The notes below the pieces were generated by a model. That model had not been told where the DNA came from. It worked only from the letters and a program-made list of their open reading frames with translations, and ran no database searches. Both the position numbers and the translations under genes were made by a program. Shown one piece after another: positions 1 to 22,105 of a stretch of DNA of 64,000 bases (positions are counted from its first letter, which is position 1; every line of letters starts with the position of its first letter). The stretch comes from an uncultured bacterium (GTDB taxonomy: Bacteria; Fidelibacterota; UBA2242). The stretch is from contig CAZSDW010000010.1 in the NCBI GenBank assembly GCA_964605705.1, positions 28,879-92,878 on the forward strand, written 5' to 3'.

Positions 1-13
1 TTTACTATAAAAA

Positions 14-62
14 CCGATCGGTGTAATCAGAAGCAATGACAGAAAAACTGACCACCGATCGG
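14..62 (-). terminator. possible intrinsic terminator hairpin downstream of DUF4177 gene
   Basis: 10-bp inverted arms CCGATCGGTG (14-23) / CACCGATCGG (53-62), followed on the minus strand by TTTTT; the loop is long (29 nt), so it is atypical. Confidence 0.3.
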
Positions 63-112
63 ACATAAAAATATAGAATAATTTAAGGATTTTCAAGAAT
101 TGTCTGCCGTAA

Positions 113-313
113 TCACTTGGTATCCAACTCTCTCTTGAGGACACCAACAAAATCCATTTGACCGGTCACATCATTGAAATCAATATTGATAATTTCCCAG
201 CCTTCCTGACCCAACTGATTGAAGTATCTCTCAGTTTCAATGAACTTCTTGCCTCTGAATATTCCACCAGCCACATGAGTAGAATCAACAACCTTGTATT
301 CCCATTTCTTCAA
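113..313 (-). CDS. DUF4177-like small protein (66 aa)
   Basis: KKWEYKVV...FNQLGQEGWEII pattern; TTG start at 313 preceded by AAGGAGG RBS (321-327); the track ORF to 394 is an upstream extension. Confidence 0.7.
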   Translation of the reverse strand: MKKWEYKVVDSTHVAGGIFRGKKFIETERYFNQLGQEGWEIINIDFNDVTGQMDFVGVLKRELDTK

Positions 314-933: not shown

Positions 934-2640
934 TCAGTCGACAAACAGCGGGATAAAATCGAAAACCGAAATATCCACCAAGCCCTTATCGGTCAGCTTA
1001 AGCTCCGGGATAACCGGTAATGATAAAAACGATAAAGTCATAAACGGATTTTCCAGTTTACAGCCTAACTGTTGCGCTGTCCGGTTCAGTTCGTCCATTT
1101 TTTCTCGGACACCCTGCAGTGGCAGTTCACTCATCAGACCGGCAATCGGTAATGCCAATGATTGCCGGACTTTTCCATTTACCACAATGACCTGTCCACC
1201 GTTCATTTTTTCAATTTCATGAACCGCAACCAGCATGTCTTCATCGTTGGTACCGACAACCAGAAGATTATGAGAATCATGGGCGACCGTCGATGCGATG
1301 GCGCCGGATTTGATTCCCATCCCTTGCACAAAACCCTTCCCGATATTCCCGGTGGCTCGATGACGCTCAATAACCACCATTTTAAGAATATCGCGACTGA
1401 CATCACTGACAGCGTTATTGCCAATAATTAGTGCTTCAACAACAAGTTTCTTTGTCAGTAGCTGATTTGGAACGATTTCGATAACATTCAGCTGTTTCCC
1501 TTCAGCCGGAACGGACAAGTCTTCAAGCGTAAGCTCTTTTAGTCTGACTGTCGGCGGTAAGCCTGATTTTTTGACTTCCATTTGGTTGACCATTTTGCCA
1601 TTCTCGGCTACCATTCGACCATTTTTATAGACCTTTTGAATGCTGAATTCATCGAAATTATCAAATAAAATGATATCGGCGTCATATCCGGGAGCAATAG
1701 CGCCTTTGTTCAGCAGACCAAAATGCCGGGCGGTGTTCAGTGATGCCATCTGCAGTGCCATCAATGGATCGATACCCGAGGCGATTGCCTGCCTGACCAT
1801 GGAATTGATATGCCCGTAATCCATTAAAAAATCAGGGTGTCGGTCATCGGTGACAAAGCCACAATTCCGCGAATTCAATGGATTGACCAGCGGCAACAGA
1901 TCCTTCAGATTGCGCGCGGCGGAACCTTCCCTGATCATCAAGAACATTCCCTTCTGCAATTTTTCACGGGCTTCCTCGATTGCAGTACTTTCATGATCAG
2001 AGCTAATTCCAGCCACAATATAAGCAGAGAGATCCTTATCCCGTACCAGCGGTGCATGACCATCGACCAGTTTTACGCCCGCGACAGAGATTTTTTCCAG
2101 TACCTGTTTATCCCGGAACAGCACACCCGGAAAATTCATCATCTCGCCAATCCCCAGAATTCGCGGATGATTGATCCATTTACGCATATCATCGGCTGAT
2201 ATAACTGCACCGGCTGTCTCAAGATGAGTAGCCGGAACACAGGAAGGAATCATAAAAAACACGTTGAGCGGTAAATCCGCAGTCGCATCAAGCATAAATT
2301 GCAGACCGGCTGTACCCATAACATTGGCGATTTCATGAGGGTCGGCAACCACTGTTGTGGTACCCATTGGCACAACCGCCCGGGCAAATTCACCGGGGCT
2401 CAACATGGAACTTTCCAGATGGACATGCCCATCTATCAATCCCGGAGCCACAAAACACCCCTTTGCGTCAACCGTCAGCACAGCATTATAATCACCAAAA
2501 CCAACAATCTTTGTATCGTGAATTGCAATGTCGGACTCGGTTATTTCAGCAGATAAAAGATTTACCAAACGGACATTTTTAATTAACAAGTCAACCGGGA
2601 TTTCACCCCTTGCCGCCGAAATGATCGATTGATTTATCAT
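934..2640 (-). CDS. ade: adenine deaminase
   Basis: DGHVHLES, DPHEIAN, GEMMN, DGHAP, SDHE, REGS, TDDRH motifs and C-terminal HDSHN domain; start 2640 fits RBS spacing (track start 2649). Confidence 0.93.
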   Translation of the reverse strand: MINQSIISAARGEIPVDLLIKNVRLVNLLSAEITESDIAIHDTKIVGFGDYNAVLTVDAKGCFVAPGLIDGHVHLESSMLSPGEFARAVVPMGTTTVVADPHEIANVMGTAGLQFMLDATADLPLNVFFMIPSCVPATHLETAGAVISADDMRKWINHPRILGIGEMMNFPGVLFRDKQVLEKISVAGVKLVDGHAPLVRDKDLSAYIVAGISSDHESTAIEEAREKLQKGMFLMIREGSAARNLKDLLPLVNPLNSRNCGFVTDDRHPDFLMDYGHINSMVRQAIASGIDPLMALQMASLNTARHFGLLNKGAIAPGYDADIILFDNFDEFSIQKVYKNGRMVAENGKMVNQMEVKKSGLPPTVRLKELTLEDLSVPAEGKQLNVIEIVPNQLLTKKLVVEALIIGNNAVSDVSRDILKMVVIERHRATGNIGKGFVQGMGIKSGAIASTVAHDSHNLLVVGTNDEDMLVAVHEIEKMNGGQVIVVNGKVRQSLALPIAGLMSELPLQGVREKMDELNRTAQQLGCKLENPFMTLSFLSLPVIPELKLTDKGLVDISVFDFIPLFVD

Positions 2641-11139: not shown

Positions 11140-12865
11140 TGTCTGAGTTTTCCTCAATCAATTTGCTTATGTTTGCTTCCTGCTGCTTGAATTCGCTATC
11201 CTTCATATCGATATAATTCCAGTCGATAAACAACTGGCGCAGTTTATTAAAGAAACTCCGGGCAGTATCTTTATCCTCGAGATTGAACTTCCGCATCAGC
11301 ACATCGTACACAAAATTGAATACATAGGTCTGACGTTCCGGCGACGAGGCGCCATCGACGGAATCAAAGGAGTTCTGCTGAAGGTAAACATTATCGAGAA
11401 ATTCGGATTTCAGGTAAATGATAAAATCATCGATGGACGTGCCTTCTTCACCCACAACCAGCATCATCTGGTGCACATCATTACCCTTGCGGAGTATTTC
11501 CCGGGCAAATTCTATCGGTTTGCTGTCGATAAAACTACTGTATTTTGACCAGCTGTCCAGCGGGTGAATCGCCGGGTAACGCCGGGCATTGGAACGCTCA
11601 CGGGAAAGTCCGTGAAAGGCACCGACCACTTTCAGCGTCGATTGGGTAACCGGTTCTTCAAAGTTTCCGCCGGCAGGGCTGACCGTTCCACCGATTGTCA
11701 AACTGCCGTAACTGCCGTCATCGAATTCCACCAATCCAGCCCGTTCATAAAACTGAGCAATCCGGGATTCGAGATAGGCAGGAAAGGCTTCTTCGCCGGG
11801 AATCTCTTCCAGGCGACCGGACAGTTCACGCATCGCCTGCGCCCAGCGGGAAGTGGAATCAGCCAGCAGTAAGACATTCAAGCCCATCTGCCGATAATAT
11901 TCTCCCAGCGTTGCCGCCGTATATACCGAGGCTTCCCGCGCCGCCACCGGCATGGAACTGGTATTACAAATAATGATCGTCCGTTCCATCAGGGATTTTC
12001 CTGTCCGCGGATCGGTAATCTCCGGAAACTCGCGCAGTGTCTCAACCACTTCACCCGCCCGCTCTCCACAGGCAGCAATAATGACAATATCGGCTTCCGC
12101 AAAACGGCTGGTGACCTGCTGGAGCACGGTCTTGCCGGCACCAAACGGTCCGGGAATACAGTAAGTGCCACCCTTTGCCACCGGGAAAAAGGTGTCGATA
12201 ATGCGGGTCTGGGTCATCAGTGGTTCTTTGGGAACCAGCTTTTCACGAAAATATTCAATCGGAATTTTTACCGGCCATTCGAAATACATCTTCAGATCGT
12301 GTTGGTCACCTTTGCTGTTCTCGATCGTAGCGATCGTATCGGAGATTTTGTACTTGCCTTTTTCCACGATTTCGCTGACTTTGAAATCGCCCTGGAGATT
12401 AAAGGGTACGAAAATCATATGCTTGAAAATTCCCTCCGGAACCGTGCCCAGGACACTGACTCCCGTAACTGTGTCCCCCTTTTTAGCAACCGGCGTAAAT
12501 TCCCAATCTTTTTTAAAGTCGAGCGCATCCAGAATGACACCGCGCTTCAGGAAGAATCCGTGCCGCGCCGCCAATTCATTCAACGGGTTCTGCAAGCCGT
12601 CGTAAACCATGCCCAGGATTCCGGGGCCCAATTGCACAGAAAGCATCTCGCCGCTGAACTCGACCTCATCACCAACTTTCAAGCCCTTGGTAATTTCGAA
12701 AACCTGCATAAAGGCGGTATTTCCCTGAATCTTGATGACCTCCGATTTCAGCCGGTCTTCACCGGTAATTGCGTAGCCCACCTCGTTCTGTATGATGTTG
12801 CCTTCAAATTCAACGGAAATCATATTTCCATTGATACCTACAATCGTACCTTTACTTTTGTTCAT
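11123..12865 (-). CDS. ntpA: V-type ATP synthase subunit A
   Basis: Walker [37 protein letters not shown]; likely start 12865 (track 12913). Confidence 0.95.
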
Positions 12866-13358
12866 AAGCCAATTCTGTATATGTTTTAAATTTTTCCTTA
12901 CCGACTTCTGCATCGAACTTTTTCAACCGGTCCAGAATCTGAAGTCTCAGATAGTAGAGACATAAAAATTCGATATCGGCATAATGTCCGAACGCCAGTT
13001 CTTCAATCAGCTGCCAGCGCAGTCGCAGCAGCTTCTTCTCGACCTCCAGCGGATTCCCTTCCTTTAAAACAGAAAGGGGAAAGAGGCTGGGTTTATACTC
13101 CTGCCGTTTATTCCGGGCAATGCGGTACTGCTGCAGTTCACTGCGCAGCGCATGTTCATAAATTTTATATTCCCGCATGACCGGAGGATCGATCATTTCA
13201 GCCTGGGATTTATTAAGCGATGCTGCGCTGAGAATTTGCAGATCGGCATCACTCAACCATTTCCGCCCTTCTCTCAGGAATTCCTCAGTGGAAAACGAGG
13301 TCTCCTTGTCGAAGAACAGCAGAGGCAGTTGCGCCGCGAAGTAAACGTATTTTTCCAT
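12852..13358 (-). CDS. DUF2764-family V-ATPase-associated subunit (C-like)
   Basis: position between E and A; YVYFAAQLP N-terminus and YYLRLQIL C-terminal pattern. Confidence 0.75.
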   Translation of the reverse strand: MEKYVYFAAQLPLLFFDKETSFSTEEFLREGRKWLSDADLQILSAASLNKSQAEMIDPPVMREYKIYEHALRSELQQYRIARNKRQEYKPSLFPLSVLKEGNPLEVEKKLLRLRWQLIEELAFGHYADIEFLCLYYLRLQILDRLKKFDAEVGKEKFKTYTELAYEQK

Positions 13359-13954
13359 CAGGCTTTATCTAATATCTCTCTAATACCGGGATTGAGGAAT
13401 TCGCCCAGGAACTCGGCTATGCTTTCATCGGTGAAATCATAATAGACATCGTTGCCTTTCAGTCCCACCCGGAATCCTTTGGAGATACCTTTGTCCACCT
13501 TTATCGTCACGGTATCTTTCAACTGAGCGCGGCTTTCGGCTATCACCAGTTCTTGCAGTCGCTTTAAATCCTTTTCGGAAACCAGCAGCTCCAGCGCCTT
13601 GTCGTCGCCCCAGTTCGCCACCATTTTCAGGACCAGTTCCTGTATAAACTCCGGGGACATGCTGGCGCCGATTTTCTGTTTGAAAGCCGCATCAAAGAGC
13701 TTCAACAGTTTTTCTTTGGTGACCAGAACAGTATCGCGGGCAGCCTGTTTCAATGCTGCTTCAGCATTGGATTTCAGTTTCTCGGCTTCTTTTCCGGCGT
13801 CGGCGATGATTTGCGCGGCGTCGGCACTGGCTTTTTTCATGATACTGTCCGCCTCTTTCCGGGCGTTCTTTAAGATTTCATCGGCGGATTTCCTGGCTGC
13901 TTCAACACCGTCGGACTTTATCTTTTTAATTAAATGCTCGAGTTTTGACTCCAT
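13358..13954 (-). CDS. ntpE: V-type ATP synthase subunit E
   Basis: LIKKIKSDGVEAA coiled coil, ISKGFRV, YDFTDESIAEFL; AAGGAG RBS. Confidence 0.88.
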   Translation of the reverse strand: MESKLEHLIKKIKSDGVEAARKSADEILKNARKEADSIMKKASADAAQIIADAGKEAEKLKSNAEAALKQAARDTVLVTKEKLLKLFDAAFKQKIGASMSPEFIQELVLKMVANWGDDKALELLVSEKDLKRLQELVIAESRAQLKDTVTIKVDKGISKGFRVGLKGNDVYYDFTDESIAEFLGEFLNPGIREILDKA

Positions 13955-14480
13955 GCAAACTCTCCTTTATCAAAATGTCAGTCTAAACATAATATGTCTC
14001 TATAGCCCCCACGGCTAATGTCATTGATGAAATTTACTGCTCTGTAATATGCCTTCCGGATTAAAGCCGACCGGAAATATATTCTACCATATCGGCAGGA
14101 CGTTGCTTTACGATTTGAGTTCTGAATTATTTTCAATATCACGTCCAATTCTTAAAAAGCGGTTAAAATTACACTCTTTGCTCAGGATTGTCAAGGTTGT
14201 TCATTTAACACTTAGCGATGTTCGGCGCTAGTGGTAATACACCAAATCGGTTCTAAAATAATTCGCTTAAGCCAGTCGATGAGTTCCATATTAATATCAT
14301 TATCGGCAGTTCCAAGTATATCTATAACTAGCAATGGCAGAATTTGGATTAGACAAATATTTTTCTTGTCTCAACTTGCGGAATTATGAAGCAAATCATT
14401 TAAACTGGCTAAGCATATAGATTTGAAACGATGTTAATTTTTGCCCATCTTCCCCGATTTGTTATTGTTTATATCACCAC

Positions 14481-14499
14481 TGTCAGGTTAGACCTGACA
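14481..14499. promoter_or_regulatory. perfect palindrome TGTCAGGT-N3-ACCTGACA (AbiEi operator candidate 1)
   Basis: 8-3-8 perfect inverted repeat upstream of abiEi; degenerate second copy at 14568-14586. Confidence 0.6.
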
Positions 14500-14526
14500 A
14501 TTATACTACAAAAGATAATATTCTTC

Positions 14527-14555
14527 TTGTTTTTCAGAATAAAACAAATTATAAT
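14527..14555 (+). promoter_or_regulatory. sigma70-like promoter for abiEi-abiEii
   Basis: TTGTTT (14527-14532) -N17- TATAAT (14550-14555), lying between the two operator copies. Confidence 0.5.
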
Positions 14556-14567
14556 TCGTATTATTGC

Positions 14568-14586
14568 TGTCAGGTTTAAACAGACC
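14568..14586. promoter_or_regulatory. degenerate operator copy 2 TGTCAGGT-TTA-AACAGACC
   Basis: left half identical to copy 1, right half 5/8 match; ends 8 bp before the ATG. Confidence 0.45.
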
Positions 14587-14594
14587 TTATCACT

Positions 14595-15416
14595 ATGAAG
14601 CATAAATATATATCAAAACAATCCAATGAACTTCTGTCATACTTTAATGATCAGAAGATGGATTGTTTTAACTATGCCGAAGCTATCAAGGCTTTACCTC
14701 AATCAAGTAAAAGTGCCCTAAAAGAATTGCTCAGTGACATGACCAGAAGAGGACTTCTGATGCGATTGAAAAAAGGATTATATTTCATCATTCCTTACGA
14801 ACAAGACGCAGAATCCTTTATGCCTGATTGGCATCTGATAACTGAAAAATTAGTAGGGAATGCCAATCACTACATTGCTTACTACTCAGCCTTACAGGTT
14901 CACAACCTGATTACTCAGCCATCATTAAAAGAACAGATTGTAGTGCCAAAGCAAATTAGACCTTCGGTAATTAGGATTAAGGATGTTCAATTTCAGTTTA
15001 TTTACCATAATGAAAAACACTTTTTTGGTGCAAAAAAAACGTGGATAGATAGTTTTCATAAAGTTATTTGCTCTGACCTTGAAAAAACAATCATTGATTG
15101 TTTATTCAGACCTGATTATGCTGGCGGAATTGTTGAAATAGCACGAGCTATCTATCTTTCAAGAGATAAAATCCATTACGATAGACTTTTGGACTATACC
15201 TATAAATTCAATTCACAAGCTGTTATAAAACGGCTTGGATTTCTTTTAGAATTGTTACGAATTGATACTAACATTATTGATGAACTTCAAAAAGTTAAAA
15301 CCAAGTCATATGTGGCGTTGGATACGGAACTTCCAAAAGCAGGAAAAATGATAAATCGTTGGAGCATTCGGCAAAACTTAGAAACCAAAACCATAAAATC
15401 TGCGTTTTATACATGA
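14595..15416 (+). CDS. abiEi: type IV toxin-antitoxin AbiEi-family antitoxin / transcriptional regulator
   Basis: N-terminal wHTH (LSDMTRRGLLMRLKKGLY), YIAYYSAL, SDLEKTIIDC, YAGGIVE, KRLGFLLE; ATGA overlap with the next gene. Confidence 0.85.
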   Translation: MKHKYISKQSNELLSYFNDQKMDCFNYAEAIKALPQSSKSALKELLSDMTRRGLLMRLKKGLYFIIPYEQDAESFMPDWHLITEKLVGNANHYIAYYSALQVHNLITQPSLKEQIVVPKQIRPSVIRIKDVQFQFIYHNEKHFFGAKKTWIDSFHKVICSDLEKTIIDCLFRPDYAGGIVEIARAIYLSRDKIHYDRLLDYTYKFNSQAVIKRLGFLLELLRIDTNIIDELQKVKTKSYVALDTELPKAGKMINRWSIRQNLETKTIKSAFYT

Positions 15417-16226
15417 TCAAACCAGGTGAGATACAGCAAAAAGCCCGTGGTGCTGGTGTTCGCGACCAGCAGATAGAAAAGGACTATGTAATTTGCTGGA
15501 TTTTACAGGGAATTGCACAACATGAACAACTTTTTAAAATCATGGTATTCAAGGGTGGAACTGTTTTAAAGAAAGTGTATTTCGAAGACTATCGCTTTTC
15601 GGAAGACCTTGATTTCACTTTAATGGAAGATGAAATCCCCGACGAGCAGATTTTTCACTGTTTTGAAGAAGTTTTTGAATACATCAGAGAAGAGGCAAAT
15701 ATCCCGCTAGAAATAATAGACGACAATGAACATGAGGATGGTGGGATAAATTTCTATATAAGCTATGTTGGTCCATTAGGCGGTACCGGAGCCAATAAGC
15801 GGGTCAAAGTTGACATTTCAAGAAACGAGCAGCTTGAATTTAAAGTTGCCCTCCAATCTATTCTATTATCTTACTCTGATCAGAAGGAACACCAACTGCT
15901 ATGTCATTCATTAGAAGAAATTTTAGTTGAAAAAATGCGTTCGGTTATGCAGCGCATGCAGGCTCGTGACTTCTACGATAATCTGGTATTTACTGGAAGT
16001 GCAATGTGTTCCCATTGATTTTTATGTGCGTGAATTCAATAATAAATGTATGAGCAAAGGATTGAATGCTTCGGATTTTCTTCAAAAATTAGAACAACGA
16101 TTGCCACAATATGAAGGACGGTGGCATAGGTCACTGAGCGAACAAATTCAGAATTTACCAGACTTTAATCGAGTAGAAAGAGAAACCATGAGACATTTAC
16201 GGAAATTGATATTTGAACGTTCATAG
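15413..16226 (+). pseudogene. abiEii: AbiEii-family nucleotidyltransferase toxin, frameshifted
   Basis: IEKDY, FKGGTVLKK, RFSEDLDF, EK..., ARDFYD motifs; an extra A at 15980/15981 breaks RDFYD-IWYLLE; C-terminus continues in the 15927-16226 frame. Confidence 0.8.
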
Positions 16227-16320
16227 TTAAAAGGAAGACCTCCTCATAAATAGTCAAACTAGCCTAGCCAGGGCAATCGGATAAAATCCACATGAAAATA
16301 AACAGTACCAGGAATTTCGG

Positions 16321-17559
16321 ATGAAAGAACATCGCGTAGTAATTACGGGACTGGGCGCTGTATCTCCCGTCGGTATAGGCGTCAAGAATTTCTGGGAAGG
16401 ATTGACGACCGGGCGAAATGGGATCGGGAAAGTCACCTGTTTCGATGTAACGGATTTTCGGTCGAAACTTGCTGCAGAGGTAAAAGATTTTCAGGCTGAA
16501 GAATGGATTGACAAAAAATCGGCAAGTCGCATGGATCGATTCACACAGTTTGCCATTGCGGCATCCGCGATGGCAATTGAAGATGCGGGATTGGAACCAG
16601 GCACATTTGATAAAAACCGGGCAGGTGTTATCATCGGTTCGGGTATCGGGGGCATAGAGACAATTGAAGATGTCTTTACAACGCTAAGAGAAAAAGGTCC
16701 CAAAAGTATAAATCCCTTTACAGTATCCAAGCTGCTGATTAATATGGCAGCCTGTACGGTCTCTATAAAATACGGCTTGAAAGGTCCTCTTTCGGCGCCC
16801 TCGGTAGCCTGTTCAACGGGATCAAATGCCATCGGTGATGCTTTTCGGATTCTGCAGCGGGGTGATGCCGACATCATGTTTGCCGGTGGCGCTGAAGCCA
16901 GTATAAACCCATTGCCCTATGGCGCTTTTTGCGCCACGCGATCAATGACGCCAAATGATAATCCCGCCAATGCCTGCCGACCTTTCGATAAAAATCGCGA
17001 CGGTTTTGTCATGGGAGAAGGCGCCGGAATTGTTATTCTGGAAAATCTGAAGCATGCCCTGAAGCGCGATGCAAAAATTTATGCTGAAATCACCGGATAC
17101 GGCAATACCGCCGATGCCTATCACTATACCGCGCCGGAACCTGAAAGCGATGGCATGATCCGGGTGATGCAGGCGGCGCTGCAGGACGCCGGTATGGATG
17201 CTGAAGAAATCGGCTACATCAATGCCCACGGCACTTCAACCGTTCTGAATGATAAATGCGAATCTGCTGCGATCCAAAAAGTTTTTGGCAAACACGCCAA
17301 GACCCTGAAGGTAAGCTCCATAAAATCAATGATCGGTCATCTGCTTGCAGCCGCCGGTGCTGTGGAATTCGTGGCAACGGTGATGAGTCTGTTCAGCGAT
17401 ACAATCCCACCCACCATCAATTACAAGGAATGCGATCCCGACTGTCCGCTCGACTATGTAACCAAGGGTGCGGAATCCATCGATTTCAATGCAGCAATGA
17501 GTAATTCATTCGGATTCGGCGGTGGTAATGCTTGTTTGGTAGTAAAAAGATATCAATAA
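16321..17559 (+). CDS. fabF: beta-ketoacyl-ACP synthase II
   Basis: RVVITGLG, VACSTG (Cys), NAHGTST (His), IGHLL (His), SNSFGFGG. Confidence 0.93.
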   Translation: MKEHRVVITGLGAVSPVGIGVKNFWEGLTTGRNGIGKVTCFDVTDFRSKLAAEVKDFQAEEWIDKKSASRMDRFTQFAIAASAMAIEDAGLEPGTFDKNRAGVIIGSGIGGIETIEDVFTTLREKGPKSINPFTVSKLLINMAACTVSIKYGLKGPLSAPSVACSTGSNAIGDAFRILQRGDADIMFAGGAEASINPLPYGAFCATRSMTPNDNPANACRPFDKNRDGFVMGEGAGIVILENLKHALKRDAKIYAEITGYGNTADAYHYTAPEPESDGMIRVMQAALQDAGMDAEEIGYINAHGTSTVLNDKCESAAIQKVFGKHAKTLKVSSIKSMIGHLLAAAGAVEFVATVMSLFSDTIPPTINYKECDPDCPLDYVTKGAESIDFNAAMSNSFGFGGGNACLVVKRYQ

Positions 17560-17716
17560 TATTTCATCTCGTATCTTCGTTCTGCGTTGAGTCGAGTGCC
17601 ACTTCTGGGCATTGCCATCTGCATTCTTGATATGTGCCCTACAAAAATCGCGCATCGCCTTTATAAATGATTATTGAAGCCCCGGCATTGACAAATCATC
17701 TATAGAAAATGACCTG

Positions 17717-17844
17717 TCGCGCTTAAGCAGTAACTCATCGCAATAAAAAATGGTTCGTCGCGATCATTCGGTCGTCCATCGCACCAATGGAGTGATATAT
17801 CGCAGGAAAAAATCACCTATCGCAGTTATGCAGTGATATATCGC
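17717..17844. repeat. helically phased array of seven TCGC tetramers (degenerate 20-21 bp tandem repeat)
   Basis: TCGC at 17717, 17738, 17758, 17779, 17800, 17820, 17841 (spacing 21,20,21,21,20,21); AGTGATATATCGC repeated at 17791 and 17832. Confidence 0.75.
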
Positions 17845-17905
17845 CGGGCTGGAACAAATCTGTTGATTTTTTTATATATCAACCTGTATATTAAAACAGA
17901 TATGG

Positions 17906-18511
17906 TTGATATACCATTCCGGAGGCTTGCTCAATACAATTCTGTGGGGCAATTCGCCCGATGAAGTCTATTTTCATAGTGCAGGATATGATAAGAGTTG
18001 TGTGACATTTTCATACACCGATGTCATGGATAGTACGGATAGAATCATTACCAATAATAATGGCGATGTTTACTGGCATGAAGGTAACTTTAATGCAAAT
18101 CCTCTTTTCTGCAATCCGGATAGTGGTAGTTTCACCATTGCTGAAAATTCTCCCTGTATTGGAGCCGGAAAGAGTGGTGAAAATATTGGCGCATTATGTG
18201 TCGGGTGCGATGCCTCGCAAATAGAAAACAAGCAGATTACTCTACCTGACCAATTTATACTCTATCCCGCCTATCCCAACCCATTCAATCCCATCACAAC
18301 TATCTCATTCTATTTGCCGTATCAGGAAGTGATAAAATTATGGATCTACAATATTGACGGTCAGCTGGTTGAAACCCTTGTGAATCAACAAACCGAGTCG
18401 GGATATCATTCTGTTAAATGGAATGGAAATAAGTATAGTTCAGGTGTCTATTTTTTAAAAATGGTCGCTGGTGGATTTTCATCAGCTGTTAAATGTCTAT
18501 TATTGAAATAA
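17906..18511 (+). pseudogene. 5'-truncated secreted beta-helix-type protein with C-terminal YPNPFNP sorting (T9SS-type/FlgD Ig) domain
   Basis: NTILWGNSP...NANPLF...SPCIGAG then YPAYPNPFNPITTI...SSGVYFLK; no signal peptide, in-frame stop at 17864, weak TTG start. Confidence 0.6.
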
Positions 18512-18998
18512 TGCAGATAACGTTGGGTGATCATCCTGTCTATTGCCTTTAAGTGGGCTGCATGTATCTGCAATGAATTTTCATCACAAGTGACATTCCC
18601 GGGTATAGATAATTTCAGGCGGAGAAGCTTTTTCCATCAATATCCATCCTGATCAAAAAATAAAACCGGTACTATCCGGAACATTTTCACCGGTTCAGAT
18701 TATATTATGCAAGAAATAAAAGTTGTTACATAATCACATCTGCCTGGCAAGAAAAACATTCATGTTCCATCTTATTAGAACGGTATGATTGTGGAATTCA
18801 GGTACAATCTTGATTATACTGATTCGGCTGCCGCCCCGATTCAGTACAGCATCAGGAATAAAACCTACGATATCTGGACTGGTTACGTCTTTTAAAATAA
18901 TCCATATAATTTCTCCCGGATAAATCCGGGGGGCAGGTTCTTCATCGTGCGTCAAAATAGAACCTTGCAAGTTCCCTTGGAATCCAGCAGATTCGGAC

Positions 18999-20636
18999 AT
19001 GTTCACTATTTGCCTGATTCAACCACCTGTCGAAGATTTCTATGCAACCCCGATCCGGAATATTCCCCTGGGATTGCTGTCCATCGGCACTGTCCTGAAA
19101 GCCAAAAACAATGTCGGTCTACTGGATCTCCGGCAACAGAAACAGCGCCGGAAATCCATTCCGGAAGAATTAACCGATGTCACTATCTATTATCGGTTTG
19201 AGGACGCTTCACCCTTTTCACTCTATAAATCTTATTCACGATATGGAGCCAACTTCGACGATATCGCCCGTTTGATTCCCGCTGCTGCAGATGTTTTCCT
19301 GGTGTCTGCGCTTTTCAGCACCTATATCCATGAAGCCCTGGAAGTCATCCGGCTAATCCGGCAGAATAATAATCGGGCAACCATTATCGCCGGTGGTTCC
19401 GGGGCTATGTTCCATTCAGATGTGTTTTTTAATGCCGGAACCGATTTCATTATACAGGGCGAGGGTGAAGTTGCTGTCGCCCGTTTACTCGATGAGCTGG
19501 AAAAATCTCAGCCTGATTTTGCCGCTGTTCCCAATTTAGTCTGGCGAAATGGTCGCGATATGATTCGGAATCCGTTAGAGATAATCACTGATATTGATCG
19601 ATTACCTTTTCCCGACTACACAATTCCCGGAACACCGGAATATATATTCAACAGAAAACGCCACGCCATGATCATGGCAAGCCGGGGCTGCCCGCATCGC
19701 TGCCGGTTTTGCTCCGTTCAGCAGGTATTTGGAATAAAATACCGTTCGCGCTCTGTGGAAAATGTCTTAGCGGAACTGGATGATAAAATCGGACAGGGCT
19801 TCCGGTCTTTTGATTTCGAAGATGATCATTTTGGCGGCAGCCGTCGCTGGCTGAACAATTTATTGGATGGGATTATCGAAAGGTTTTCCGGCTATGATCT
19901 GTCCTTCCAGGCAATGAACGGCATCACCGCCAGTAATCTCGATGAAATGCTTCTTGGGAAAATGAAAAAAGCCGGTTTTAAGTCAATCAACCTGTCGCTG
20001 GTCACCCCTGATCAGACCCGTCAGGATGCCCTGCAACGCCCCTTTGACACAGCGCAATTCAGTAAAATTGTCCGTTCCGCCCATGAGATCGGTTTGAAAA
20101 TAACCGCCTATCTGATCATCGGTCTGCCCGGCGATACTGTAAATGATAATTTTAAGTCCATTCTGTTTCTGGCGGATTTGCCGGTACTTATCGGACCTTC
20201 CCTGTTTTACCTGGTCCCCGGAACGCCGATTTTTGACGAACTGAAGGAAAAAGATCAAATCCCCAAATCGCCGCGCTGCTACCGTTCCAGCTATTTTCCC
20301 TTTGAGCAACCGGATTTTTCACGATGCTCAGCGATGACCCTTTTTCGCATCTGCCGGATTCTCAACTTTATCAAAGCCGCCCGGGAATATGAGTATCATC
20401 CCACAGACTATTTCGTCAAGAATAATCACATTATTTTACCCGAAGCACTGAATGGCAGACAGTCCCAGATTACCCTTGGTTTTGCCCTGCTGGATATTCT
20501 GAAAAATACCGGTATCCTCTACGGCACAGCTAAAAAGACGAAGAGTCAATACCCACTGGTCGCGGAAAAAGTTGACGAGAAACTGTTCCGCCTTTTCCTC
20601 AGTTCCTGCTCAAAATATTTACAGCATCTATATTAG
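18999..20636 (+). CDS. B12-binding domain radical SAM protein
   Basis: N-terminal cobalamin-binding-like domain, SRGCPHRCRFC CxxxCxxC motif, FEDD, LIIGLPGD. Confidence 0.85.
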   Translation: MFTICLIQPPVEDFYATPIRNIPLGLLSIGTVLKAKNNVGLLDLRQQKQRRKSIPEELTDVTIYYRFEDASPFSLYKSYSRYGANFDDIARLIPAAADVFLVSALFSTYIHEALEVIRLIRQNNNRATIIAGGSGAMFHSDVFFNAGTDFIIQGEGEVAVARLLDELEKSQPDFAAVPNLVWRNGRDMIRNPLEIITDIDRLPFPDYTIPGTPEYIFNRKRHAMIMASRGCPHRCRFCSVQQVFGIKYRSRSVENVLAELDDKIGQGFRSFDFEDDHFGGSRRWLNNLLDGIIERFSGYDLSFQAMNGITASNLDEMLLGKMKKAGFKSINLSLVTPDQTRQDALQRPFDTAQFSKIVRSAHEIGLKITAYLIIGLPGDTVNDNFKSILFLADLPVLIGPSLFYLVPGTPIFDELKEKDQIPKSPRCYRSSYFPFEQPDFSRCSAMTLFRICRILNFIKAAREYEYHPTDYFVKNNHIILPEALNGRQSQITLGFALLDILKNTGILYGTAKKTKSQYPLVAEKVDEKLFRLFLSSCSKYLQHLY

Positions 20637-20641
20637 CGGAA

Positions 20642-22105
20642 TTATAATCCCATTTCCGTCATTGCCTGTTCAATCAGTTTATCACTGACTTTCTGGATCG
20701 CCCGGGTTCCGGCAGCTTCCTCGGAATTGCCGGCATTTTTATCCTCGATCATATAATTGCCGACTACGGTTTTCATCTGAATATTATAAACCTTGAGTGT
20801 CCCACGCGCCTTGGCAAAGTAAAAACCATCCTGGATTTTATTTGTCTGACCCGACGAAACAGTTCCGAGAATGACAAGATCTGCACCTGTATTACTCACC
20901 ATATTGGCGATTTTTTCCGCCTGGTCGGTCAAACCGTACTCGTTAAGTTGGCTAAAAGGATTGTTCTCAAGCACTTTAAAACCCACCGCGGTCATTTTTT
21001 CCAAAAGAGCATTCTCGAGATAAGAAATTTCCACCGCTTTACCGAGATTGCTCTCAATAATTTTCACCATGACTTTGTTATCCGGCAGCAGCGAAAAGGT
21101 ATATTGATTATTACTGATTTTCAACGCTTCGGGAAGCTGCACCGTCGCCCGGATATCGACATTTCCGGCAGAAACGAAATTTTTGATAAAACAGAAAGCA
21201 TTACCATCCTGGTCGGTTTTGGATTTTAATTCCATGGTAACCTTGCCCCGCAGTACGGTAAATTCCACATCGAGATCCGGCAGGGGATAGCGTTGTTCAC
21301 CATCCATCCAATAGACTGAAACGGTCAGAGGCTTAGCCAATGGCAGACCCATCTTAGCCGGTTGATCGGCACCGCTGCCAACAATCCGGATGCTAGCCGG
21401 AATCTGTTCCATGGTTGCCGCGATCTTCTCTTTAAAACTATTCAGCAGACCGAGTTCCTGAGGTGACAAGCCGGTAAATTTTGTCATCGGTAATATATTT
21501 GCCTGGACAGTATTCATCTGGTCCAGCGCCAAGGTAATTTGTCCCTGATGAGCCAGCTCCAGAGATTCTTCAAAACGGCTTTTACCGAGAGTAACTGTTT
21601 CATCGATCATTTCTTTCATAAACCGCTTATGATTCTCTTCGGAAAAGGGTACCGCCACAAACACCTGGTATTCAACCTGAGATTTGAAGCCGTCCTTAAT
21701 TTTCCACTCTTCGACAAAAACCTCCTGCGGTTTGACAGCAATTATATTCCGGGATACCACTTTAATTCGGGAACTGGTGAAGGCATCAACGGAGGTGACT
21801 TCCGAAGTTTTTTCGATGATCTGGTCAACATATTCGCTTTCAATAATGCCCCCCAGCGTTTCGATAATTTGCCGTTTGGCGTCCGCCAGGGCATCCGCGC
21901 GGGCATCGGTTTCATTGGAAAACCGATGGGAAATTCCGACGTAAATTCCCGGTTGGACTTTATCCACCCATTTGGGACGTGGTTCTTTTGTCACCCGTTT
22001 TTGCGCATACAGAATGTCACCGCTAGCTATAAGAAGCAGTAAAAAAGTCAGAATGTAACTCAAAAATCGTGTAAAATATTGCCTTGAGTCATCGCTAATT
22101 TTCAT
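20642..22105 (-). CDS. secreted hypothetical protein (LPP20-like N-terminus, Ig-like middle, CsgG/FlgT-like C-terminus)
   Basis: signal peptide; PKWV...ARADALADAKRQI; TDQDGNA; ADLVILGTVSS; domain names are pattern-level only. Confidence 0.55.
   Translation of the reverse strand: MKISDDSRQYFTRFLSYILTFLLLLIASGDILYAQKRVTKEPRPKWVDKVQPGIYVGISHRFSNETDARADALADAKRQIIETLGGIIESEYVDQIIEKTSEVTSVDAFTSSRIKVVSRNIIAVKPQEVFVEEWKIKDGFKSQVEYQVFVAVPFSEENHKRFMKEMIDETVTLGKSRFEESLELAHQGQITLALDQMNTVQANILPMTKFTGLSPQELGLLNSFKEKIAATMEQIPASIRIVGSGADQPAKMGLPLAKPLTVSVYWMDGEQRYPLPDLDVEFTVLRGKVTMELKSKTDQDGNAFCFIKNFVSAGNVDIRATVQLPEALKISNNQYTFSLLPDNKVMVKIIESNLGKAVEISYLENALLEKMTAVGFKVLENNPFSQLNEYGLTDQAEKIANMVSNTGADLVILGTVSSGQTNKIQDGFYFAKARGTLKVYNIQMKTVVGNYMIEDKNAGNSEEAAGTRAIQKVSDKLIEQAMTEMGL

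Follow-up and report, generated by a model that had tools for sequence, protein, structure and literature searches.

The iterons of theta plasmids (R6K, RK2, pSC101 and F) are several direct repeats with a spacing of ~21-22 bp, located on one face of the helix. Partition centromeres also consist of repeats: sopC of F has 43-bp repeats, parC of pSK41 has 20-bp repeats and parH of TP228 has tetramer boxes, in which the 4-bp box alone is conserved. These centromere repeats, spaced at whole helical turns, nucleate a protein filament. In type III toxin-antitoxin (TA) loci (ToxIN, CptIN, TenpIN, AbiQ/antiQ), direct repeats of ~35-45 nt are found just upstream of a gene for a protein of ~200 aa, on the same strand. 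These repeats are system-specific, and the loci often lie among defence genes. VNTR and MIRU minisatellites are intergenic tandem repeats of 40-100 bp that are oriented with the flanking genes, vary in copy number and break assemblies; the MIRUs are dispersed at tens of loci, without a fixed helical period.

Bacterial tandem repeats with a constant size of 20-21 nt, and related ones of 40-41 and also of 52 nt, all variable in sequence, have been surveyed by Subirana and Messeguer (PMC8161180). In the passages of the survey cited here, the repeats are described as non-coding and species-specific in sequence, with a short characteristic motif in each and an unexplained function. As explanations, the authors put forward either polymerisation of a protein along the DNA or an RNA transcribed from the repeats. 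For the 52-nt class, transcription is described in a second paper (PMC8625621). The surveyed genomes (Bacillus, Paenibacillus, Cyanobacteria and others) each hold many interspersed families, for which these passages report no linked gene family.

Here, we analysed a chain of phased TCGC tetramers in a window of 64,000 nucleotides from an uncultured bacterium of the Fidelibacterota (contig CAZSDW010000010.1). The chain is very probably a homologous orphan copy of a type of phased array that in other genomes precedes a gene of the PQLLE family. The fuller reading, in which this degenerate copy marks a rearrangement scar and is a probable relic, is the one that we favour on balance. The initial annotation had stated that no standard feature class explains the chain. 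This is nearly right; the array does fit the published but unexplained constant-size class, as outlined in the cited passages, in repeat length, non-coding nature, species-specific sequence and possession of a short motif (PMC8161180). The same passages take in repeats of at least four units returned by a standard repeat finder, and Tandem Repeats Finder, which detects the canonical relatives of the array, gave no call in the window even with a score as low as 30, as the repeats here have decayed too far. PQLLE arrays differ from the class, as far as these passages describe it, in being rare (one to three per genome), tied to a gene, and made of two alternating half-units with one core. They apparently form a widespread class that is unpublished as a gene-linked module, and they may act at the DNA level or at the RNA level.

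The phased TCGC chain

Seven TCGC tetramers start at positions 17717, 17738, 17758, 17779, 17800, 17820 and 17841, with steps of 21-20-21-21-20-21 bp, and another in-phase TCGC is present at 17655, as the initial annotation had reported. The sub-motifs that it had pointed out were all found: AAAAAAT in units u2 and u5, AGTGATATA in u4 and u6, and TTA.GCAGT in u1 and u6. An extra TCGC at 17648 was absent from it. Between 17656 and 17953 the seven are the sole TCGC, and the region has one GCGA. Other 4-mers in the window chain at most four times at 20/21 bp. In the 3.56-Mb genome, the array is the only chain of at least four for TCGC or GCGA, and the sole chain of at least six for any 4-mer at spacings of 20/21, 21/22, 31/32 or 41/42 bp. 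Chance as the source of the phasing is excluded, since the longest chains in 200 Markov-1 simulations of the window had 2-4 members, and ~2e-11 chains of seven are expected analytically. The mixed 20/21 spacing indeed keeps no reading frame: there are stops in all six frames across the array, and units of 41 bp cannot hold one.

Searches for known RNA features were negative. The region had no match to Rfam 15 covariance models at E <= 1, four related loci had none at the gathering score, and ARAGORN found no tRNA or tmRNA. On both strands, the minimum free energy (MFE) of the folded array was no better than that of shuffles (z = -0.5 and -0.2), and the array of a relative, G009, gave no structure signal either (z = +0.6 and +2.6). 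Scans for sigma-70 promoters and terminators gave only weak matches at chance level, with no evident sigma-70 promoter upstream of the array.

Half-units of the array

The array is a decayed tandem repeat of ~215 bp (17646-17861) with ~10 half-units, eight of which keep TCGC. The repeat unit has 41 bp and is composed of half-unit A (21 nt, consensus TCGCrGTmATTyrGTCGTCyr) and half-unit B (20 nt, consensus TCGCAnnnAAAAATGGyTyG), with the TCGC core common to both. At a second locus of the same genome, on contig C2, half-unit A is TCGCGGTCATTCAGTCGTCCA (21 nt) and half-unit B is TCGCATTGAAAAATGGTTCG (20 nt), each starting with TCGC. The half-units follow each other in the order A-B-A-A-B-A, and therefore a 21-21 step and a "62-bp super-period" appear. 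The super-period noticed earlier is explained by this order; the idea of a free-standing tetramer array is replaced, as the tetramers are the cores of half-units.

The seven tetramers had been delimited correctly, but the full length of the array, with its upstream reach to ~17646, had gone unreported. A canonical (B+A)x3 concatemer aligns upstream to this position with a score of 35.5, compared with 20.1 +/- 4.7 for shuffles, a score that 2 of 500 shuffles reached. The extension adds three degenerate half-units, two of them without the TCGC core; downstream of u7, the concatemer alignment gave no extension. Units u1 and u6 have 14 of 21 positions in common (hand count from the printed sequences), and a 29-nt direct repeat with 83% identity and 41-bp spacing links u4 and u6.

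Table 1 Features of the array and its neighbours in the window.
Feature	Position	Strand	Description
Beta-ketoacyl-ACP synthase (FabF/B-type) gene	16321..17559	+	Upstream neighbour, intact, outside the element; Pfam ketoacyl-synt N- and C-terminal domains
Degenerate 5' part	17646..17716	+	~Three half-units, from the concatemer alignment; includes TCGC at 17648
5' half-unit, B-like	17655		TCGC kept
5' half-unit, A-like	~17676		Core lost
5' half-unit, B-like	~17696		Core TCAT
u1, diverged A (A')	17717..17737	+	TCGCGCTTAAGCAGTAACTCA; 9/17 non-core matches to A consensus
u2, canonical B (20 nt)	17738..17757	+	TCGCAATAAAAAATGGTTCG; 13/13 matches to B consensus
u3, canonical A (21 nt)	17758..17778	+	TCGCGATCATTCGGTCGTCCA; 16/17 matches to A consensus
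u4, diverged A (A')	17779..17799	+	10/17 matches to A; makes the A-A adjacency and the 21-21 step
u5, diverged B (20 nt)	17800..17819	+	A-tract kept; 9/13 matches to B
u6, diverged A (A')	17820..17840	+	12/17 matches to A
u7, last half-unit	17841..17861	+	TCGC core alone recognisable; 4/17 matches to A, 2/13 to B
Junction segment, A+T-rich	17862..17926	.	Array to breakpoint; no homolog found
3' fragment of T9SS-sorted beta-helix protein gene	17927..18511 (ORF called 17906-18511)	+	Por_Secre_tail domain

The four diverged units (u1, u4, u5 and u6) retain all 16 of their core positions, compared with 40 of their 64 non-core positions. This retention of the core, together with that in u7, could mean that the copy is still under selection; against this, TCGC is gone from two of the three units upstream. 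TCGC may survive best because it is the sole segment common to A and B, and hence it would be the most constrained segment, or the most often homogenised one, in live arrays.

Related arrays

The intergenic region, used as a query against the genome, matched a second locus, C2:128125-128330 (E 1e-8), which is 88-90% identical to u2+u3. It is a clean 41-bp tandem repeat, broken by a 100-N scaffold gap, and this orphan array sits between intact genes. The centre of the window array, u2-u3, is ~90% identical to the C2 copy, which may reflect conversion between the arrays, and the edges would represent an older, diverged sub-family. The flanks 17560-17645 and 17862-17926 had no match in the genome search, and BLAST found no homology between the flanks 17560-17716 and 17862-17930 and those of canonical arrays.

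In an unbiased scan for TCGC at 21-20-21 spacing, which took in 30 genomes of the family, 42 of the order and 401 of the phylum, the same two genomes had arrays at each rank: the window genome and G009, a MAG of Ca. Neomarinimicrobiota from the Black Sea (array contig JADHWC010000089.1). The reversed control pattern gave one match. A/B units are also found in the MAG JAHIOG010000601.1 and in the metagenome contigs L014, L015 and L023; contigs L013 and L016 are the window locus and the C2 locus, respectively, from other samples. The C2 array of L016 comprises ~2 units, compared with ~5 elsewhere. The order A-B-A-A-B-A corresponds to the first six units of the arrays in G009 and L015. Neither the inter-tetramer segments, for which phage and plasmid relatives had been envisaged, nor the A/B array sequences as a whole had viral, phage or plasmid matches. 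The periodicity scan of the genome and its relatives that the initial annotation had called for left the chain as the only one of its kind in the genome, and the array in G009 lies upstream of a PQLLE gene.

Link to the PQLLE gene

Downstream of the array in G009, L015 and L023 come a conserved A+T-rich leader, a strong ribosome-binding site (RBS) and a gene for a protein of 218 aa, all in the same orientation. A fourth locus, L010, has the same leader and RBS after the array, and then the contig ends. In G009, the protein encoded past the array belongs to PQLLE_fam (NCBIfam NF052641), with a full-length match (E 6e-77) of 258 bits against a cut-off of 80. PQLLE had no Pfam, PHROG or PADLOC match. 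In the literature, neither the term PQLLE in a protein-family sense nor a link between arrays and PQLLE was found.

At least 223 homologs of PQLLE, labelled KSB1, Bacteroidetes, Calditrichaceae and Chloroflexi, were found, mostly on contigs of 1-3 kb. Arrays from other phyla were compared at three PQLLE loci with DNA, L018, L019 and L020. All three have an upstream array with 7-12 cores at 20-21 bp, and each core is different. In L018 (KSB1), AACCGC occurs 8-12 times with variable spacers at a spacing of exactly 21. In L019 (Bacteroidetes), CCGAC (seven copies) and AAAAT (eight copies) have a spacing of 21, in a 42-bp unit repeated 4.6 times. In L020 (Calditrichaceae), TCTACC occurs 9-12 times at a spacing of 20/21, in a 41-bp unit repeated 4.8 times. 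Phased arrays recur upstream of this one protein family in at least four phyla.

Within the order of the window genome, PQLLE is above the cut-off in 4 of 42 genomes, compared with 0 of 14 control genomes, and each of the five full-length loci above the cut-off has an upstream periodicity of 21/42 bp. One genome, G008, has three PQLLE paralogs with three different cores. Many distant paralogs below the threshold also have upstream arrays of exactly 21 bp (TCAT x13, AAAG x11, GGGA x8, TTTC x7 and AAGC x7); the background is one such chain in the 3.56 Mb of the window genome. Cores differ even between PQLLE proteins that are ~66% identical. The called genes of the related loci include no parA/parB or parM/parR, and the loci are chromosomal.

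The window array has at least six cores at 20-21 bp, is non-coding, and has units homologous to those of the arrays that precede PQLLE genes. It is not directly upstream of a PQLLE gene in the same orientation, and because neither a PQLLE gene nor a remnant of one adjoins it, we classify it as an orphan copy and not as a complete module.

The PQLLE protein

PQLLE is an acidic, all-helical protein of 218 aa with an internal duplication. The model obtained with AlphaFold and 44 homologs (pLDDT 93) is composed of two homologous halves, each with two short helices and one helix of 56 residues. The fold had no PDB or BFVD match at E <= 0.001, and the sequence had no PDB match. The family has a median pI of 5.06 and a net charge of -6, and its members are 50-65% identical across phyla. 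Fold, PDB, Pfam, PADLOC and pI gave no support for PQLLE as a nucleic-acid binder or a toxin, and at the related loci there is no conserved neighbour gene able to supply a binder.

Locus context

The junction segment downstream of the array contains a perfect inverted repeat with arms of 10 bp (17875-17884 / 17904-17913) and, at 17863-17892, a weak sigma-70-like match. It covers the 65 bp between the end of the array and the breakpoint of the T9SS gene. The ortholog of this gene in the genome G005 is an open frame of 664 aa with an N-terminal segment that resembles a signal peptide. The window ORF aligns with 70% amino acid identity to residues 470-664 of the ortholog, its last ~195 residues, and at the DNA level the identity is 74.7% over 585 bp, from 17927. 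The fragment lacks ~470 N-terminal residues, signal peptide included, and judging by this alignment it is a probable pseudogene.

The chain had also been suggested to be a scar left when the adjacent gene was truncated. The 5' truncation of the downstream gene, with homology only from 17927, is borne out, but the array is no by-product of it, as it has homologs elsewhere; as far as the sequence can tell, the array is a pre-existing element rather than a product of the truncation. We propose that the leader and the PQLLE gene were lost through a deletion or rearrangement, or that such an event separated the array from both. The same event would have taken the 5' two-thirds of the T9SS gene and left the array behind. 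From this locus context, the window copy is probably a relic.

The contig of the window, C10, has no PQLLE match. In the same genome, a PQLLE gene is cut at the start of contig C8, and residues 143-218 are covered. The closest fetched homolog (P0003) is 89% identical to this fragment and comes from another organism, whose contigs stop before any array. The orphan copies may derive from a PQLLE-linked array of TCGC type that belongs to the window genome and is not in the assembly.

The neighbours of the array (Pfam, eight nearest ORFs, 12852-22105) are fabF, AbiE, the T9SS fragment and a radical SAM gene; rep, par and recombinase genes are not among these eight. In the AbiEi/AbiEii pair of this neighbourhood, the toxin ORF spans only the first ~70% of the profile.

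Comparison with described repeat systems

Iterons resemble PQLLE arrays in their direct-repeat geometry on the same helix face. They differ in that the window array is chromosomal, without a rep gene, DnaA box cluster, plasmid context or plasmid matches, and in that the core of a PQLLE array has just 4-6 bp and its linked gene encodes a helical protein that does not look DNA-binding. Partition centromeres share the tandem repeats at whole helical turns; however, there is no parA, parB, parR or parG near the PQLLE arrays, which are chromosomal and found in two or three copies per genome at unrelated loci. Iteron, centromere and transposon-end readings are ruled out by gene context. A cooperative protein-binding scaffold, as first suggested for the chain, is still a live mechanism for the class; the analogies to iterons, partition sites and recombination enhancers fail on gene context.

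The layout of type III TA loci, with repeats upstream and on the same strand, is like that of PQLLE loci. However, PQLLE is all-helical, acidic and highly conserved, unlike the ToxN-type RNases, and the PQLLE repeats show a sub-period of 21 nt and form no defined hairpin unit in MFE folding. Furthermore, the window array has no partner gene. The VNTR and MIRU minisatellites, unlike PQLLE arrays, lack a link to a single gene family across phyla. The features of a CRISPR array are not found: both half-units are conserved, the period is 20-21 nt, and there are no mobile-element matches.

DNA or RNA level

Several observations point to the DNA level. Every lineage keeps the period of two helical turns despite the turnover in sequence, A-tracts are phased, and no RNA structure is predicted. 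Moreover, the lengths of the published repeats cited above (20-21, 40-41 and 52 nt) are all near-integer helical turns in our own interpretation. Other observations point to RNA. The orientation of the array relative to the PQLLE gene is constant, and in L018 and L043 the arrays stop ~30 nt before the start codon, too close for a promoter to fit between array and gene. In a metatranscriptome from groundwater, the contigs that match the 8-kb G009 contig span its array and PQLLE coding sequence (535-1650) and no other part of it. The RNA support for the array is a single 151-nt contig of low depth, which comes from a relative. This contig also takes in an extended -10 box that precedes the G009 array, and for this reason the box remains a putative promoter element. 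Coverage of a G008 paralog in a second RNA data set is sparse and does not include the array.

For the class as a whole, a DNA-level platform has, in our estimate, a chance just short of even, an RNA leader or partner is a serious though lesser possibility, and the absence of any function is not very probable. We lean slightly towards live arrays being phased platforms at the DNA level that are also partly transcribed. Such an array would offer a row of short identical sites, two helical turns apart and often with phased A-tracts, a proposal made with low confidence. At the PQLLE promoter or leader, or a short way upstream of it, this row would bend the DNA or load a repeating factor. Loading or bending would control PQLLE expression, and the array would be at least partly transcribed too. 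Several points weigh against this proposal: PQLLE is acidic and lacks a known nucleic-acid-binding fold, no conserved neighbour gene could supply a binder, and paralog-specific cores speak against a shared host factor.

Alternative explanations

The window copy might be a working DNA scaffold on which a protein polymerises at TCGC cores every two turns, serving as a decoy or titration site, as a nucleoid-structuring site in line with the proposal of Subirana and Messeguer, or to drive the promoter-like segment 17863-17892. We consider this unlikely. It agrees with the period of 20.5-21 bp, equal to two turns of B-DNA and kept across phyla despite sequence change, with the phased A-tracts, and with the better retention of TCGC in the diverged units; the second orphan copy on C2, between intact genes, and the invariance of the array across samples are also consistent with it, and a protein polymerising on 20-21-nt repeats is one of the proposals in the cited passages of the survey (PMC8161180). 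However, there is no candidate binder, as the neighbours are not conserved and PQLLE is acidic and has no DNA-binding fold. The cores vary among paralogs of one genome, which argues against a shared host factor that reads them. The sole downstream gene is the truncated fragment without signal peptide, two upstream units have lost the core, and such arrays are present in just 2 of the 401 phylum genomes.

A bolder proposal, which we regard as rather unlikely, is that the PQLLE gene and its array form a self-contained cross-phylum module, in which each core is read by the product of its own gene and the orphans are live extra copies that titrate or buffer the interaction, not dead relics. The mode of reading, with the core recognised as two-turn DNA or as unstructured leader RNA and one half of the protein for each half-unit, is equally doubtful. 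If the proposal were true, PQLLE would be the first cognate protein for the enigmatic constant-size 20-21-nt bacterial repeats.

A role of the arrays as RNA is distinctly unlikely. In this reading, the transcribed repeats, in a leader or as an RNA of their own, would partner PQLLE in the manner of type III TA systems or a protein sponge, and the orphans would supply RNA in trans. Four to five tandem repeats of 41-42 nt lie on the same strand directly upstream of a gene for a protein of ~218 aa, an architecture shared by ToxIN-type loci. In addition, cores are paralog-specific, neighbours are often defence or TA genes (SIR2_2, UvrD/PDDEXK, Phd/ParE; AbiE in the window), the G009 array is covered by a contig of an RNA run, arrays abut the RBS in two loci, and one half of the protein could match one half-unit. 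Against an RNA role, folding predicts no stable or conserved structure for the window or G009 arrays, PQLLE is unrelated to ToxN, AbiQ, CptN and TenpN by PADLOC and Pfam, and it is acidic. Its cross-phylum identity is unusual for a toxin, and the window array has no evident upstream promoter.

That the whole class is a neutral, slippage-prone minisatellite, in which TCGC is homogenised most often because it is in both the 21- and the 41-bp registers, is very unlikely. Turnover is fast, with cores that differ between paralogs and between PQLLE proteins of ~66% identity, arrays break assemblies, the unit number varies (~2 on C2 and ~5 elsewhere), and neither a binder nor an RNA structure was found. 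Neutral drift, however, does not predict a 20-21-bp period and a position upstream of one family in at least four phyla when the sequence itself has turned over completely, and elsewhere in these genomes there are almost no arrays of this kind.

The remaining readings can be dismissed: a decayed coding repeat of seven residues, suggested by 21 nt being seven codons and by a 67-aa ORF called near the array position in L019 (exact 42-bp period), is refuted by the stops in all six frames and by the 41-bp units, and a CRISPR-like or guide-RNA mini-array, one of the initial suggestions, does not agree with canonical inter-core segments that are two conserved alternating half-units and not diverse spacers, with the lack of phage, plasmid or viral matches, or with a period too short for repeat plus spacer.

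Decay and variation of the arrays

The locus ties one set of fixed-size 20-21-nt repeats to the PQLLE family in Marinisomatota, KSB1, Bacteroidetes and Calditrichaceae, with paralog-specific cores, and one small gene with one array of ~200 bp offers an experimental handle. The arrays break short-read assemblies: C2 has a scaffold gap, one PQLLE gene is truncated where its contig begins, and another contig starts within an array. Therefore, the PQLLE-array module is probably under-counted in MAGs. Arrays within one genome still share near-identical units. The orphan copy in the window represents a natural decay experiment, in which the 4-6-nt core and the 20/21 phase outlast the rest of the unit. 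In the salt-marsh runs that cover the locus, the only SNPs are two, at 17610 and 17638, both located upstream of the array, which is itself invariant and gives no indication of continuing decay.

Arrays ahead of PQLLE genes

In two loci that carry a TCGC array, L010 and L014, a second tandem family with a 42-nt unit lies directly downstream of the array, on the minus strand in both. Within this family, TCGGAA/TCGGAAC is phased at 21 nt. Since the family directly follows the TCGC array, two distinct phased arrays stand in series ahead of the same leader and ribosome-binding site (RBS), the second of them with GGA motifs. In L014, a 33-nt unit (TAGGGTAAACCnCGTTAGATGTTCACTATCTAA) occurs as two tandem copies on the minus strand, immediately 5' of the TCGC array, and farther upstream than these copies there is a conserved segment, CAATCCAGGGTTCAAGAAGCCCGGATTTCAGCGACTAAA, which is common to L010 and L014.

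The related genome G008 has three paralogs of PQLLE, the helical protein of family NF052641, at L026 (contig C18), L036 (C1) and L043 (C2), with identities of 33-47% to PQLLE of G009. Each paralog has a separate 42/21-bp array, the core of which differs from one to the next, and in L043 about 30 nt separate the end of the array from the start codon. The motif GGGGCAGTGT(T/C) is common to L025, L026 and L036, where it is found about 40-80 nt 5' of the PQLLE start codon. It is placed between the array and the RBS in G023 and G008 loci that have differing arrays, and could be a promoter or leader element. The L025 and L026 copies have CTTACA(A/T)(T/A) ahead of them. In the Calditrichaceae locus, L020, a repeated heptamer is located straight after the PQLLE stop codon.

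Features and their coordinates.
Feature	Locus	Position	Strand	Description
Second tandem family	L010	about 170-325	minus	42-nt unit x4
Heptamer repeat	L020	1397-1435		GGAAGTA x ~5
Orphan A/B repeat copy	G000, C2	128125-128330	minus	second in G000
Same locus, gap-free	L016	385-480		~2 units
PQLLE gene	G000, C8 (L027)	1-228		cut at residue 143
46-nt repeat	G000, C92 (L051)	about 1100-1300		~3.5 copies; autocorrelation 0.80
Inverted repeat	window	17875-17913		perfect, 10 bp; 19-nt loop
AbiEii toxin ORF	window	15359-16226		region of the 219-aa ORF

Related features of the window genome

The second orphan A/B repeat copy in the window genome, G000, lies next to an intact esterase-like gene on one side and a nadC-like gene on the other. 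Its copy number is uncertain or variable, because the copy contains a 100-N scaffold gap in the MAG, while the gap-free assembly of the locus has only about two units. The PQLLE gene of G000 is cut by the contig start, and its 5' half, together with any array, is absent from the assembly. G000 also has a distant PQLLE-like ORF, L051, which is preceded by a repeat with a period of 46 nt rather than 21/42 nt; GTCATTGCGAAG-type inverted segments are found inside this repeat.

Neighbourhood of the window array

The inverted repeat (TATATCAACC / GGTTGATATA) is located within the junction segment, with the array on one side and the truncated gene on the other, and overlaps the TTG at which the truncated-gene ORF nominally begins. 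The PADLOC profile match of the AbiEii toxin ORF covers only positions 1-183 of 260, and this ORF overlaps, in a different frame, a 99-aa ORF without a Pfam match. A frameshift or a truncation of the toxin ORF is possible and would be consistent with decay of an accessory region.
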